DNA from: Salmonella phage vB_SenS-3
Strand: one strand, 5' to 3'
Sequence record: OR896822.1
Length of the DNA stretch: 64,000 nucleotides
The position numbers and the translations under genes are program-made. How positions within the stretch are numbered: position 1 is the first letter of the stretch; the number at the start of each line of letters is the position of its first letter. This document shows positions 8,864 through 14,382 of this stretch, in pieces. The notes under the pieces were generated by a model. It was not told the DNA's origin. It searched no databases and was given only the letters and a program-made list of their open reading frames with translations.

Positions 8864-9763
8864 ATGTACTACTCTCTAATGCGAGAGTCAAAAGTTATAG
8901 TTGAGTACGATGGCAGGGCTTATCATTTTGATGCCCTGTCAAATTACGATATCAATACGTCCTATGAGGAATTTAAAACTCTTCGTAGGACTATCCATCG
9001 TAGAACCAACTATGCTGACTCTATTATTAATGCACAAACTCCATCTTCAATATCGCTGGCTATAAATTTTAGTAATACCCTTACTGAGGCTAACTTCTTT
9101 GAATGGATGGGCTTTGATAGAGAGGGTAACACATTCTTACTACCACTTTATAGTACAAATATTGAGCCAACAATGTTTAATATATACATAGTTAATAAAG
9201 ATAATAACTGTGTGTACTTTGAGAATTGCTATGTATCTACTGTAGACTTTTCTCTAGACAAAAGCGTTCCTATCCTAAACGTAGGAATTGAATCTGGTAA
9301 GTTCTCTGAGGTGTCTACTTTTACTCCTGCTGGTTCTATTGTTCAGGGTGAAGTTATGTCATATAGTCCTCCTAGAGTATCTACCAACAGTAATGTTTTA
9401 CCAGCTCTTTTATCCGCTTCTATGTCATTCCAGCAACAATGTTCTTGGAGAGAAGATAAAAGCGTATTTGACATAAACAAAATATATAATAATAAGAGAG
9501 CTTATGTTAATGAAATGAATGCTTCGGCAACAATTGCATTTTACTACACTAAGCGATTTGCTGGTGATATGTTTTATAATATTGAACCCGAAACTGACAT
9601 ACCATTAACCATCCGAAATGAACATATTTCGATTGACTTTCCTTCAGCACGTATAACAAAACGCCTACAATTCTCGGATATATACAGAGTTGAATGGGAT
9701 GTAATCCCTACTGCAGACTCTGATCCGGTAAGAATCGACTTCTTTGGAGAAATAAAGAAATGA
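8864..9763 (+). CDS. tail-associated protein (possibly collar protein p140-like)
   Basis: 299-aa ORF between tail tube and chaperone genes; assignment by synteny only. Confidence 0.35.
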   Translation: MYYSLMRESKVIVEYDGRAYHFDALSNYDINTSYEEFKTLRRTIHRRTNYADSIINAQTPSSISLAINFSNTLTEANFFEWMGFDREGNTFLLPLYSTNIEPTMFNIYIVNKDNNCVYFENCYVSTVDFSLDKSVPILNVGIESGKFSEVSTFTPAGSIVQGEVMSYSPPRVSTNSNVLPALLSASMSFQQQCSWREDKSVFDINKIYNNKRAYVNEMNASATIAFYYTKRFAGDMFYNIEPETDIPLTIRNEHISIDFPSARITKRLQFSDIYRVEWDVIPTADSDPVRIDFFGEIKK

Positions 9764-10164
9764 TCAATTTAAAAGATATTACCCTTGAAACTCGTACTAT
9801 TGAGCTGGCTTACCCAGGTATGCCTAACTTCAAGCTGCAACTGAACTACATGTCTCGTGCTGCATCTAAGCGTGTTATCTCTTCCGCTAAGCGTGATGAG
9901 TGGGTTAACGGTACTATGATTCAGGTTCAGGACGATGATAAGTTTATTGAAGCTTTCGTTGATACTGCAATTGCTGGCTGGACTGGCTTGACGATTGGAG
10001 ATGTTGAGAAGCTGATGCTTATCGAAACTGAAGCTGATCCTACTACTGAAGTTCCGTTTAGTCGCGATAACGCTATCATGCTTATGCAGAACTCTGCTGC
10101 GTTTGATTCTTGGATCAACCAGACAGTGTTCCACTTAGACACTTTTCGTAGCTCAAAAGCGTAA
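9760..10164 (+). CDS. putative tail assembly chaperone (upstream ORF)
   Basis: 134-aa ORF located just before the tape measure gene, the usual chaperone position. Confidence 0.4.
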   Translation: MINLKDITLETRTIELAYPGMPNFKLQLNYMSRAASKRVISSAKRDEWVNGTMIQVQDDDKFIEAFVDTAIAGWTGLTIGDVEKLMLIETEADPTTEVPFSRDNAIMLMQNSAAFDSWINQTVFHLDTFRSSKA

Positions 10165-10225
10165 GCAGTTACTAGATGCTGTTGCCGATTTTGCAGATAA
10201 ATGCATTAAATCCTCAGCATCTAAA

Positions 10226-10594
10226 ATGACAAAACAACAATATTTAATGCTTTGCGAGTCTCTAGGTATTGAACCTGATCCTAAGGCAATGCCTGTTGAA
10301 CTCGAAGATTTTCCACCTATTGTATCTACTAGTATGAATATTTATAATAGTCTTATTGACTGTTTCATACCAGGTGACTTTCCTATCTTTATAGGAAAAG
10401 ACAAAAGTGCATTAGGTGTTTTATTTGATATCTATGGGATTACTGATCCTATAGAGAAAGAGTTTGTTCTACACATCATCAATATATTTGATTCGAAAGC
10501 TGTAGATGCAGCTCGTAAGAGAGCCGAGAAGCATAGTAAACCTAATGGTCGTACCCCGAACATTAAACCACATGCTAGATCTCGAGCTCAGTAA
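10226..10594 (+). CDS. putative tail assembly chaperone (downstream ORF; frame open from 10139)
   Basis: 122-aa ORF in the +1 frame relative to 9760..10164; its frame is open from 10139 and overlaps the end of the upstream ORF; no clear SD before the ATG at 10226. Confidence 0.35.
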   Translation: MTKQQYLMLCESLGIEPDPKAMPVELEDFPPIVSTSMNIYNSLIDCFIPGDFPIFIGKDKSALGVLFDIYGITDPIEKEFVLHIINIFDSKAVDAARKRAEKHSKPNGRTPNIKPHARSRAQ

Positions 10595-10628
10595 AAGTTT
10601 CCTCCAATGGGCGTTCCACGATGAGGCT

Positions 10629-10662
10629 TGGCTCTGGGTGATTTGCCCAGAGCCTTTTTTAT
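10629..10662 (+). terminator. rho-independent terminator immediately upstream of tape measure gene
   Basis: Hairpin GGCTCTGGG-tgatttg-CCCAGAGCC followed by TTTTTT. Confidence 0.7.
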
Positions 10663-10674
10663 TGGGAAAAATAA

Positions 10675-13600
10675 ATGACTGATAAGCTAATACGAGAACT
10701 ACTTATAGATGTAAAGCAGAAAGGGGCAACCCGTACTGCAAAATCTATTGAGAACGTTTCCGATGCGTTAGAAAATGCTGCTGCCGCTTCCGAACTGACT
10801 AATGAGCAGTTAGGAAAAATGCCCAAAACTCTTTACTCCATTGAGAGGGCAGCGGATAGAGCAGCTAAAAGTCTAACTAAAATGCAGGCTAGCAGAGGTA
10901 TGATAGGTATCACCAAATCTATGGATAGTATTGGTGCTAAGTTAGATGACCTTGCTATTGCTATGATTGAGGTATCCGATAAGCTAGAGTCTGGATTTAC
11001 ACATGTTGGTAAATCTGTTAAGGCGATGGGTAACGATGTAGCTGCTGCAACTGAAAAAGTTCAAGATAGATTATACGATACAAACCGTGTTTTGTCGGGT
11101 ACTACTAGAGGCTTCAATGATACTACCACATCCGCAGGTCGTGCTAGTCGTGCTCTAGGTAATACCTCTGGTTCTGCACGGGGTGCAACTCGTGACTTCG
11201 CAGCAATGGCTAAAGTTGGTGGTTCTCTACCTCTTATGTATGCTGCTATCGCATCTAACGTGTTCGTTCTACAATCTGCATTCGAACAACTTAAGATGGG
11301 TGACCAGTTAAACCGTCTGGAGAAGTTCGGTACTATTGTAGGTACTCAAACAGGTACTCCGGTACAAACTCTAGCTAGATCTCTACAAGAGGCTGCTGGT
11401 TATGCAATCTCCTTCGAAGAAGCAATGAGACAGGCATCCTCTGCTTCTGCATATGGATTCGATGCCGAACAACTTAATAAATTTGGTCTAGTAGCCCGTC
11501 GTGCTGCTGCTGTTCTTGGTGTTGATATGACTGATGCACTTAACCGTGTAATCAAAGGTGTATCTAAACAAGAAATCGAACTTCTGGACGAACTTGGTGT
11601 TACTATTCGTCTTAATGATGCTTACGCTGACTACGTTAAACAGTTAAATGCTGCTAACACAGGTATCACATATAACGTCAATAGTCTTTCCACTTTCCAA
11701 AAGCAACAAGCATATGCTAACGCAGTTATTGCTGAATCTACTAAACGTTTCGGCTACTTGGATGACGTACTCCGTGCAACTCCATGGGAACAGTTTGCTG
11801 CTAACGCTGATGCTGCACTAAGAAAGGTTCAACAGGCTGCTGCTAAGTATTTAGGGCCAGTAATTGATTCTATCAACGCAGTGTTCTATACTTCTCAAGC
11901 ATCTATCTCGGCCTCTGCTGCTAGAGCACAGGAAGAAACTAACCGCCAGATTGACCCAGCTAACATTGGTGCTGTAGCTTTAAGTCTTTCCGCTTCTGAG
12001 GAGGGATATAATAAAGCTCTTGATATGTATAAAGAGTCTCTGGATAAGCGTAATAAACTAAAGACTGAGTTTGATAAACGTATGTCCCAAGCAGATGCTA
12101 GTACTGCTGCCGCTATTAGATTAGTGGGTGAGGGAATGCCTGTTGGATTAGCTGCTGGGGGGTTTGAAGTAGGGGGAGTGCGCATAGGTTCTTCCGAAGC
12201 TAACAAAAAGTTTGTAGAAGAAACCGCAGCTATGGGACTACAGGTAGCAAGGTTAGGTAAAGAAGTTGATGATTCTACTGAAAACCTTAATGCTTGGAAA
12301 TCTGCGTATCAAGCTGCTGGTGCTGCGGCTGCTAAGACTAATCCAGAATTTCAGAAGCAGATTAATCTGCAGAAGGATATGAATGACCCTGATGCGGTTT
12401 ATGACTTTAACTCCGCAACTCTGAAAGGACTGACGGAACAGCAGAAAGCATATGATCAGGCTAAGAAAACTGCTAGTGATTTAGCTAACGATATCCAGAA
12501 CATCGCTCAGAATACTAATACTGCGGCTAAAACTAGTGCATCCCTATCAGATACGATTAAAACTATTGAGTCTCTTTCTGCTGGTACTGGTAAAAATGCT
12601 GATGAGTATGTTAAGAGTCTGAACTTAGGATATAATACTCTTAGTGAGATGAAGACTGCTTCACAAGCTCTTGCTGGTTACGTAAAATTAACTGGTAATG
12701 AGACTAAGAATCAGTTAGAAGTTCAGCAGAAGATTGCAGAAGTATACAACCAGACTAAGGACAAAGAGAAAGCACAGGAAGCTGGTAGACGTCTGGAAAT
12801 CCAACAGTTAGAAGAACAGGAAGCAGCTCTTAAACGTGTCCTAGAAACTAACAAGGGTAATAAAGCAATCGAGAATGAAATAGCTAAGATTCAGTTAGAA
12901 CGTATCAAAGTTACTAACCAGGGTATGGAAGCCCAGAAGAAGGTTAAGGACTATACGGATAAGATTCTTGGTGTTGATCGTGAAATTGCTCTCCTGAATA
13001 ACCGTACTATGACAGATACTCAGTATCGTTTAGCTCAGTTGAACCTTGAACTGACTGTCGAGAAAGAGAAATACACATGGTATACTAAGCAAGCAGATAA
13101 GCAGAAAGAAGCAGAACAGTCAAGACGTGCTCAGGCACAGATTGAACGTGAAATCTGGAAATTCCGTCAAGATCAGCAGATGGAAATGGCTTCTGGACGC
13201 GAAAGAGCTCTTAATATTTCACAGACTAGCAGAAACGTTACTGGGGAATCTCAGAGACTAACTGAACAGCAAGCTCTGTACCAAAGTTTACTGGAAATTA
13301 CAAAAGGAAATGCACAAGCTCAGGAAGAGTATAAGCGTAAAATCCAAGAAACTTCGGCAGCTCTAGCACAGCTTAAGATGCAACGCGATGCTCAGATGCA
13401 GCAGCAAGTCACTTCTTCTGTTGGTGGTGTTTACACTCCAACAACTGGACTGGAAGGAGATGATAAAGCAAATATGGATATGCAGAATAGAATGGCATCC
13501 TATGACCAGGCTATCTCTAAACTATCCGAGCTGAACTCTGAAGCAACTGCAGTGGCACAAAGTATGGGTAACCTAACTAATGCTATGATTCAGTTCTCTC

Positions 13601-14382
13601 AGGGATCTCTGGATACTACATCTTTAGTTGCTGCTGGTATGCAAACTGTGTCTTCAATGATTCAGTATAGTGTTGGTCAACAGGTAAGTGCTATTGATGC
13701 AGCTATTGCAGCAGAACAGAAACGTGATGGTAAATCTGAGCAATCCAAAGCTAAGATCAAGAAGTTAGAGGCTGAAAAGCTCAAGATCCAGCAAGATGCA
13801 GCTAAGAAGCAAATCATTATCCAGACGGCAGTAGCGGTGATGCAAGCAGCAACAGCTGTTCCATACCCATTTTCTATTCCTCTGATGGTTGCGGCTGGTT
13901 TAGCAGGTGCTATGGCTCTTGCTCAAGCATCCTCTGCATCTGGTATGTCTTCTATTGGGGACTCTGGTGCTGAGACAGCTGGTTACTTAACTCTTGGAGA
14001 GCGCCAGAAGAACGTAGACGTTTCTATGTCGGCTAACGCAGGAGAACTTTCTTATATTCGAGGGGACCAAGGGATTGGTAATGCTAACTCTTTCGTACCT
14101 CGTGCAGAAGGTGGTAATATGTATCCTGGAGTTAGTTACCAGATGGGTGAGCATGGTACCGAAGTAATCACTCCTATGGTTCCGATGAAGGCTACTCCTA
14201 CTGATGAACTCAAAGGATCTTCAAAGGGTACATCGGGTAGACCTATTGTGCTGAACATCAGTACGATGGATGCGGCTAGCTTCCGAGACTTTGCTTCGAG
14301 CAACAGTGCTGCTTTCAGGGATGCCGTGGAACAGGCTCTTAATGAGAATGGAACCACCCTGAAATCACTTGGTAATTCTTAA
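10675..14382 (+). CDS. tape measure protein (pb2-like)
   Basis: 1235-aa ORF, Ala/Gln/Lys-rich and coiled-coil-like throughout; hydrophobic segment near C-terminus (IIQTAVAVMQAATAVPYPFSIPLMVAAGLAGAMALAQA); located between chaperones and distal tail protein. Confidence 0.85.
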   Translation: MTDKLIRELLIDVKQKGATRTAKSIENVSDALENAAAASELTNEQLGKMPKTLYSIERAADRAAKSLTKMQASRGMIGITKSMDSIGAKLDDLAIAMIEVSDKLESGFTHVGKSVKAMGNDVAAATEKVQDRLYDTNRVLSGTTRGFNDTTTSAGRASRALGNTSGSARGATRDFAAMAKVGGSLPLMYAAIASNVFVLQSAFEQLKMGDQLNRLEKFGTIVGTQTGTPVQTLARSLQEAAGYAISFEEAMRQASSASAYGFDAEQLNKFGLVARRAAAVLGVDMTDALNRVIKGVSKQEIELLDELGVTIRLNDAYADYVKQLNAANTGITYNVNSLSTFQKQQAYANAVIAESTKRFGYLDDVLRATPWEQFAANADAALRKVQQAAAKYLGPVIDSINAVFYTSQASISASAARAQEETNRQIDPANIGAVALSLSASEEGYNKALDMYKESLDKRNKLKTEFDKRMSQADASTAAAIRLVGEGMPVGLAAGGFEVGGVRIGSSEANKKFVEETAAMGLQVARLGKEVDDSTENLNAWKSAYQAAGAAAAKTNPEFQKQINLQKDMNDPDAVYDFNSATLKGLTEQQKAYDQAKKTASDLANDIQNIAQNTNTAAKTSASLSDTIKTIESLSAGTGKNADEYVKSLNLGYNTLSEMKTASQALAGYVKLTGNETKNQLEVQQKIAEVYNQTKDKEKAQEAGRRLEIQQLEEQEAALKRVLETNKGNKAIENEIAKIQLERIKVTNQGMEAQKKVKDYTDKILGVDREIALLNNRTMTDTQYRLAQLNLELTVEKEKYTWYTKQADKQKEAEQSRRAQAQIEREIWKFRQDQQMEMASGRERALNISQTSRNVTGESQRLTEQQALYQSLLEITKGNAQAQEEYKRKIQETSAALAQLKMQRDAQMQQQVTSSVGGVYTPTTGLEGDDKANMDMQNRMASYDQAISKLSELNSEATAVAQSMGNLTNAMIQFSQGSLDTTSLVAAGMQTVSSMIQYSVGQQVSAIDAAIAAEQKRDGKSEQSKAKIKKLEAEKLKIQQDAAKKQIIIQTAVAVMQAATAVPYPFSIPLMVAAGLAGAMALAQASSASGMSSIGDSGAETAGYLTLGERQKNVDVSMSANAGELSYIRGDQGIGNANSFVPRAEGGNMYPGVSYQMGEHGTEVITPMVPMKATPTDELKGSSKGTSGRPIVLNISTMDAASFRDFASSNSAAFRDAVEQALNENGTTLKSLGNS

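Follow-up and report, generated by a model that had tools for sequence, protein, structure and literature searches.

Here we report that the two tail assembly chaperone genes annotated upstream of the tape measure gene in Salmonella phage vB_SenS-3 are very probably one recoded gene, in which a +1 ribosomal frameshift on the dicodon UUU_CGU would join the second open reading frame (ORF) to the first. The analysis covers 64,000 nucleotides (nt) of sequence record OR896822.1, hereafter the window, numbered from its first base, and all features described lie on the plus strand unless stated otherwise. The upstream frame, ORF1 (9760-10164, frame 1), encodes a G-like tail assembly chaperone of 134 amino acids (aa) that is homologous to T5.143, and the downstream frame, ORF2 (10226-10594 as annotated, frame 2), encodes a T-like domain of 122 aa that is homologous to T5.142. 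The window belongs to a T5-like Salmonella phage: within bases 9700-10700 it matches Salmonella phage S147 at 100% identity and more than 400 T5-like phages (Demerecviridae) at 85-99%. In the T5 record, T5.143 (405 nt) and T5.142 (369 nt) stand 61 nt apart as two separate ‘tail assembly chaperone’ coding sequences (CDSs), and the public records that we inspected likewise annotate two CDSs, with 10165-10225 as intergenic space and 26 codons uncalled. Profile searches against PHROG place both ORFs in the same family. ORF1 matches phrog_313 ‘Tail assembly chaperone’ (E 4e-35) at profile positions 12-141 of 258, and ORF2 matches phrog_3914 (E 2e-57) as well as positions 170-255 of phrog_313. Given that this one model of 258 positions is matched by ORF1 and ORF2 in turn, the two ORFs are halves of one family model.

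The geometry of the junction restricts where and how the two frames can be connected. ORF2 lies in the +1 frame relative to ORF1, and a frame scan finds frame 2 closed by a TAG at 10136-10138 and open from 10139. The resulting two-frame overlap of 26 nt (10139-10164) covers the last 8 sense codons of ORF1 and its stop, and because both frames are open only here, a shift must fall within it. The -1 frame is closed by a TAG inside the overlap, hence only a +1 or a -2 geometry is possible. No heptamer of the X_XXY_YYZ type occurs in 10139-10164. The initial annotation had described this layout correctly, from the opening of the ORF2 frame at 10139 and its overlap with the last 8 codons of ORF1 to the need for a +1 or -2 shift; its remark that no canonical slippery heptamer is present is true as well, but beside the point, as +1 sites are not heptamers. 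It had further noted that the ATG at 10226 has no recognisable Shine-Dalgarno (SD) sequence, and this is borne out by scoring: the duplex with the anti-SD sequence reaches +1.2 kcal/mol at best, which is among the weakest 3% of 64 window ORFs of at least 100 aa, as compared with -6.4 kcal/mol for ORF1 under the same scoring. The leader of this ATG reads TTAAATCCTCAGCATCTAAA. Between 10139 and 10225, frame 2 holds no ATG, GTG or TTG, so the linker coding sequence that precedes ATG 10226 is reachable only from ORF1.

The linker itself behaves as a protein-coding segment. It comprises 26 codons of frame 2 with no start codon (10148-10225, VAQKRKQLLDAVADFADKCIKSSASK) and is recognised both by its variation pattern and by tblastn. 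In a comparison of 20 distinct T5-like versions of the junction, the 61 nt at 10165-10225 contain 21 variable sites, with 15 at codon position 3, five at position 1 and a single one at position 2 when read in the ORF2 frame. The changes at position 1 include synonymous switches between Leu TTA and CTN and between Ser AGC and TCN, and the amino acid is altered in just three codons (E/Q, D/K, I/V). A polymorphism at 10153, present in 11 of the 20 sequences, is synonymous in the +1 frame (GCT/GCC) and replaces Ser by Pro in the ORF1 frame. Judged by this pattern of variation, the 61 nt evolve as coding sequence of the ORF2 frame. A tblastn search with the ORF2 frame read from 10139 gave matches in 908 phage records, and the alignments start at residues 1-6 of the extension, ahead of the Met, with 57% identity in Klebsiella Sugarlandvirus and 30-42% in Vibrio phages. 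The linker is conserved as protein down to approximately 30% identity, and in the five genera examined ORF2 is always in the +1 frame relative to ORF1.

The overlap contains no in-frame TTT-pyrimidine other than the proposed shift site, UUU_CGU at 10144-10149, which lies 5 nt downstream of the point where the +1 frame opens. The dicodon TTT_CGT occurs four times among the 18,415 codons that make up the window's long ORFs, with approximately 0.002 occurrences expected per 8-codon overlap; the remaining sites are at 67, 57668 and, on the minus strand, 41141. The site is also present in T5, whose junction is nearly identical (GAT ACT TTT CGT AGC TCA AAA GCG TAA). Scans of viral and metagenome contigs yielded 110 further loci and, after duplicates and assemblies with obvious insertions or deletions (indels) had been removed, 80 distinct complete loci. 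The T-like domain lies in the +1 frame in 45 of these and in the -1 frame in the other 35. The 45 +1-class loci form eight clusters below 60% amino-acid identity, and every one of them (45/45) has exactly one in-frame TTT-pyrimidine in the two-frame overlap. This is TTT_CGT in 42 loci and TTT_CGA in three, always in the same alignment column. In genera checked by hand it reads GGG TTT CGT (Vibrio JSF12), AAC TTT CGA (Bennett) and CGA TTT CGA (four Aeromonas phages of Shenzhenvirus). Of the 45 loci, 43 have AAC, AAT or ACT in the E site. The open +1 frame ahead of the site is usually just 2-5 codons long, and the part of ORF1 beyond the site, of 0 to 19 codons depending on the locus, shows no conservation. 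Five loci that appeared to break these rules, together with one apparent in-frame fusion, were rejected as natural variants, given that they come from assemblies with homopolymer or other indels. The Aeromonas loci, too, were dropped as exceptions to the site rule once TAG had been recognised as a probable sense codon in these phages.

Codon usage at the site differs from that in the same genes elsewhere. TTC encodes the Phe in 0 of the 45 +1-class loci, compared with 11-40% (28% overall) at control Phe columns of the same genes, and the Arg codon is CGN in 45/45 and AGA or AGG in 0/45, compared with 55% AGA, 64% AGA plus AGG and 36% CGN among the Arg codons of these genes. The first +1-frame codon after the site is GTA, GTG, GTT, GAG or GAA. 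Although Val and Glu differ in their chemistry, the codons of both begin with G, which suggests selection on the nucleotides. In the 55 window ORFs that reach 120 aa or more, a pyrimidine comes after 49 of the 339 TTT codons and 208 of the 407 TTC codons, and Phe-Arg is written as TTC_CGN 22 times and as TTT_CGN four times. This rarity of TTT-pyrimidine and TTT_CGN in the window indicates that the phage generally avoids the TTT_CGN dicodon. UUU-pyrimidine was reportedly described by Schwartz and Curran in 1997 as prone to +1 shifting in E. coli and as avoided in highly expressed genes, and the avoidance in the window agrees with this.

A second line of evidence comes from relatives that shift in the opposite direction. 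All 35 distinct loci with the T-like domain in the -1 frame carry a canonical heptamer in the overlap, and across both classes the kind of signal matches the frame offset without exception (80/80 loci). The heptamer is A_AAT_TTT (within GAA AAT TTT ACN) in 21 of the 35, aligned with the Phe column that holds the +1 site, and A_AAA_AAC just ahead of the stop in the other 14; the base after TTT is A in this clan, never a pyrimidine. Neighbour-joining groups all -1 loci in one clan and leaves the +1 loci as the rest of the tree, a topology compatible with one change of shift direction. These -1 relatives, found on environmental and mostly marine contigs, have G-like and T-like domains homologous to those of the window (27-30% identity to its fused protein) and the same linker helix, and differ in using the A_AAT_TTT or A_AAA_AAC heptamer with the T domain in the -1 frame. 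When the fused proteins of both classes are aligned, the alignment runs unbroken across the junction (DLDNF/VQQ... in the +1 class and DLENF/YWEQ... in the -1 class, with a slash at the junction) and the junction Phe is invariant, whereas the Arg that follows it in ORF1 has no counterpart in the -1 clan (ENFT...). Among the best 150 of 165 T-domain-related clusters, we found no credible natural in-frame fusion of the G and T domains. The homologous -1 relatives are textbook examples of G/GT frameshifting, and the most plausible reading of the +1 arrangement is therefore the same expression strategy run in the opposite direction. Seven +1 loci from marine metagenomes read GAA AAT TTT CGT and so carry both A_AAT_TTT and TTT_CGT on the same codons; such a sequence could allow shifting in either direction or mark an intermediate stage in evolution.

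On these grounds we propose the following mechanism. Most ribosomes would translate ORF1 from 9760 to 10164 and terminate, releasing the 134-aa G-like chaperone. A minority would shift +1 with the peptidyl-transfer RNA (tRNA) for Phe, anticodon GAA, on UUU at 10144-10146 and CGU in the A site. The tRNA-Phe would then re-pair to UUC at 10145-10147, exchanging a G:U wobble for a G:C pair and thereby gaining a better match; this UUU to UUC re-pairing is the only one common to all +1 loci. C10147 would effectively be skipped, and decoding would resume at GUA (10148-10150) and continue through the linker and the T5.142-like domain to 10594. The predicted fusion has 277 aa (129 + 148, from 9760-10146 joined to 10148-10594) with the junction ...HLDTF/VAQKRK..., and its predicted tryptic junction peptide, DNAIMLMQNSAAFDSWINQTVFHLDTFVAQK, is long. 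If it works like lambda gpGT, the fusion would bind pb2, the tape measure protein, through its G part and recruit the tail tube protein through its T part. Given that no stimulator was found, a low efficiency is expected, as in influenza PA-X and lambda G/GT, and this would suit a chaperone that is needed in small amounts.

The arrangement closely resembles lambda gpG/gpGT (Xu, Hendrix & Duda 2004; reviewed in PMC5009743), in which two overlapping ORFs are likewise flanked by tail tube or baseplate genes on one side and the tape measure gene on the other and for which a G:GT molar ratio of 30:1 is known (PMC5009743). As in chaperone frameshifts of the lambda type, many members lack a separate start for the second domain, and PHROG names both ORFs tail assembly chaperones. 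It differs from lambda in the +1 rather than -1 direction, in the use of the dicodon UUU_CGN instead of a heptamer and in having no detectable sequence similarity. The closest precedent for the site itself is influenza A PA-X, whose +1 site UCC_UUU_CGU has been proven by mass spectrometry (Firth et al. 2012, PMC3498833). The core UUU_CGU, the direction, the UUU to UUC movement of the P-site tRNA-Phe, the lack of an obvious stimulatory structure and the low expected efficiency are all alike. However, PA-X is made on eukaryotic ribosomes in hosts in which CGU is rare and has UCC in the E site, whereas the phage site would work on the bacterial ribosome with the commonest Arg codon of the phage, has AAC, AAU or ACU in the E site and is known from sequence comparison. 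UUU_CGN has also been inferred comparatively as the motif for +1 programmed ribosomal frameshifting in amalgaviruses (Nibert et al. 2016, PMC5052127), in which it is likewise kept across a diverged family at an ORF1/ORF2 overlap; these, however, are double-stranded RNA viruses of plants and fungi, and the product is a CP-RdRp fusion. In the literature searched, the motif name UUU_CGN is used for eukaryotic viruses only. The best-known bacterial +1 shift, in E. coli prfB (RF2), shares the bacterial ribosome and a P-site tRNA that slips +1 onto a better or equal pairing, but differs from the T5-like junction, which has no SD-like sequence 3 nt upstream and has CGT as the A-site codon.

Tail genes that are recoded in directions other than -1 have been described before, namely Mu gpGT (-2) and, with +1 shifts, Listeria phage Tsh and the SPP1 tail protein (PMC3498833), and the chaperone of the haloarchaeal virus HSTV-2 probably shifts +1 (PMC5009743). 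Forward shifts are also annotated in actinobacteriophages; the PRFect training set contains 350 forward cases, and its authors state that a general forward motif has yet to be identified (PMC10274946). Recoding by +1 or -2 is thus open to tail genes, but the motifs in these systems differ, being stop codons, rare codons or runs of identical bases, and none of the systems belongs to T5-like phages. Forward frameshifts in tail chaperones are hence already known as a kind, and the novelty here lies in the family that would use one, in its motif and in the reversal of direction at one codon. We found no description of a frameshift in T5-like chaperones in the literature searched, although a report in a journal beyond that search is possible.

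A predicted RNA hairpin lies in the linker at 10173-10223 (fold z-score -3.5), with a 9-base-pair outer stem formed by TAGATGCTG (10173-10181) and CAGCATCTA (10215-10223), and ends 2 nt ahead of ATG 10226. It is 100% paired in 14 distinct T5-like sequences, with one compensatory change (U:A to C:G) and one change from U:A to U:G, although 35 of 500 shuffles did equally well. We found no counterpart of this hairpin in other genera. It was rejected as a classical stimulator, given that it begins approximately 24 nt past the A-site codon, which is too far, and that its covariation support is weak. It may nevertheless be part of the recoding system and might mask the internal ATG or modulate ribosome traffic.

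Several points weigh against a +1 frameshift. CGT is the commonest Arg codon in the window (454/849) and is frequent also in E. coli (PMC3498833), hence not the rare, slow A-site codon that such a shift might call for. No SD-like element was found upstream of the shift site, where the sequence TTAGACAC(T) contains nothing like GGAGG, nor did we find a downstream RNA structure that is conserved across genera, so that the efficiency may be very low. Conservation of the Phe-Arg residues could owe something to constraints on the protein, and as the lineages behind the 45 +1-class loci are not fully independent, the codon statistics are only rough. A passage in the Sugarland genome note (PMC6256483), citing Zivanovic et al. 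2014, states that T5 has no predicted frameshift signal. The remaining points concern the start of ORF2. ATG 10226 is invariant in all 20 T5-like sequences, and T5.142 expressed alone from a plasmid is stable and active and triggers a Schlafen defence (PMC13056530). Both would be expected if the two genes were independent, as the public records have them, with ORF2 initiated at ATG 10226 from its A-rich leader in an SD-independent manner and the open frame upstream of it incidental, and a Met stands in this column in several other lineages as well, where gene callers often start. We nevertheless consider independent genes improbable, as this explanation leaves the coding signature and the cross-genus protein conservation of the 61 nt ahead of the ATG unaccounted for. 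The start codon is moreover missing in Sugarlandvirus (ATA), Vibrio PG07 (CTA), Vibrio JSF12 and Bennett (TTC/TTT) and Aeromonas phages, and in Vibrio PG07 the first in-frame ATG of the second ORF sits within the conserved domain. In T5-like phages the ATG combines one of the weakest SD scores of the window with a conserved hairpin that abuts it. The Met-10226 column holds M, I, L or F across the family and M, I or F in the -1 clan, in which the frameshift is evident; we read it, from the alignment, as a hydrophobic structural position. Independent initiation of ORF2 may still take place alongside the frameshift in T5-like phages and yield a free T protein besides the fusion.

Other routes into frame 2 fare less well. 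The geometry would allow a -2 shift equally, as documented for Mu gpGT (cited in PMC3498833), and this would leave the frame unchanged and add one residue at the junction (...DTFFVAQK). After such a shift, however, the tRNA-Phe would have to pair with CUU in T5-like phages or ACU in most other lineages, both of them poor matches, or with GAU, and the conserved C after UUU would have no role; we regard it as very improbable and take +1 to be the probable direction. Frame 2 could also be fed by termination at the ORF1 stop and reinitiation, that is, translational coupling, or by transcriptional slippage on the T run, and to either of these we give almost no credence. Slippage might be imagined in T5-like phages, which have a run of four T (CTTTTC), but the run found in most lineages, of three T (ACTTTCG), is much too short for the polymerase to slip. 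Reinitiation would have to bridge 61 nt between stop and ATG with no SD, several lineages have no restart codon, and the coding signature begins upstream of the ORF1 stop. Of the two options that the initial annotation had offered for this junction, coupling or +1 recoding, the former is thus disfavoured by the gap, the lack of an SD and the missing start in several genera, and the latter is favoured by the coding linker and by TTT_CGT or TTT_CGA in 45/45 loci; the alignment with other T5-like chaperone pairs that it had suggested as a check reveals a shared layout and also favours +1 recoding. Finally, TTT_CGN might merely mirror a conserved Phe-Arg at the C-terminus of ORF1, with an accidental relation between the frames and no functional link. 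The Phe is indeed invariant and followed by Arg in all +1-class proteins. However, its Arg tracks the +1 geometry and not the protein fold, since it is missing in the -1 clan, the synonymous codons TTC, AGA and AGG never appear at the site and are common elsewhere, and the match between frame offset and signal type at 80/80 loci would have to be a coincidence, which makes this explanation exceedingly unlikely.

The genomic setting of the chaperone pair is that of T5: it lies directly upstream of the tape measure gene and downstream of a p140-like gene. The latter is a p140-like baseplate tube gene (8864-9763, Pfam PF23779), and the ORF1 start overlaps its stop in an ATGA at 9760-9763. This is a classic junction for translational coupling and contrasts with the 61-nt gap ahead of ORF2. 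The tape measure protein gene (10675-14382, Pfam TMP_N and TMP_C) encodes the homolog of pb2, the client of the chaperone. In the interval between the chaperone pair and this gene lies a terminator-like hairpin with a T-run (10630-10661), a strong structure of 11 base pairs followed by TTTTTT, and the T5 record has a rho-independent terminator at the equivalent place. In T5 an HNH endonuclease gene (T5.141) is inserted near the terminator position; it is not present in the window. An ORF of 58 aa (10506-10682) overlaps the end of ORF2 and the terminator hairpin and has no PHROG match. In phage GEC_vB_N7 a CDS for a hypothetical protein of 36 aa is annotated in this frame and shares the stop, but the 58-aa ORF is probably not a gene. 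Neither Pfam nor NCBIfam has a model that matches ORF1 or ORF2, a profile search of PDB sequences gave no match to the chaperone pair and hence no solved relative, and the AlphaFold2 single-sequence model (predicted local distance difference test score of 37) was too poor for a fold search. No prophage copies of the chaperone locus were found in the genome contigs scanned, and Rfam returned nothing relevant over 9700-10700.

A side finding concerns the T5-like Aeromonas phages of the genus Shenzhenvirus, in which conserved genes are dotted with in-frame TAG codons. In AhSzq-1, AhP_Mru1, TS3 and AhSzw-1, such codons are numerous in the chaperone ORFs and at the N-terminus of the tape measure protein, and in these four independent genome records TAA and TGA still end ORFs. 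AhSzq-1 has a tRNA with the anticodon CUA in its tRNA cluster (contig L152, 12795-12869). One of the TAG codons aligns with CAG (Gln) in a relative and others with T, K, G or A. Taken together, the sequences indicate a putative reassignment of the amber codon in Shenzhenvirus, which would explain why the deposited annotation is fragmented or on the wrong strand.

Beyond the window, we lean slightly towards a broader claim, namely that the whole T5 family (Demerecviridae) and related marine phages make a GT-like chaperone by a hitherto unrecognised programmed +1 frameshift on the minimal signal UUU_CGN, that this is the first use of the signal in bacterial viruses and that the site emerged when the shift changed direction at the very Phe codon on which sister phages slip by -1. 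If this holds, the same dicodon would be a sufficient +1 signal on bacterial as well as eukaryotic ribosomes, and the two clans would form a natural homologous pair that shifts in opposite ways on the same codon, which would be useful for mechanistic work. UUU_CGN offers a simple motif for predictors of forward frameshifts, and the annotation of many phage genomes would be corrected, given that 908 records hold the T domain. The Schlafen nuclease trigger T5.142, which has been studied as a stand-alone protein (PMC13056530), would in its physiological form probably be the 277-aa fusion. T5, a classical model phage, has been an apparent exception to the near-universal G/GT rule; a +1 UUU_CGU site would explain why its signal went unpredicted, and T5 would no longer be an exception.

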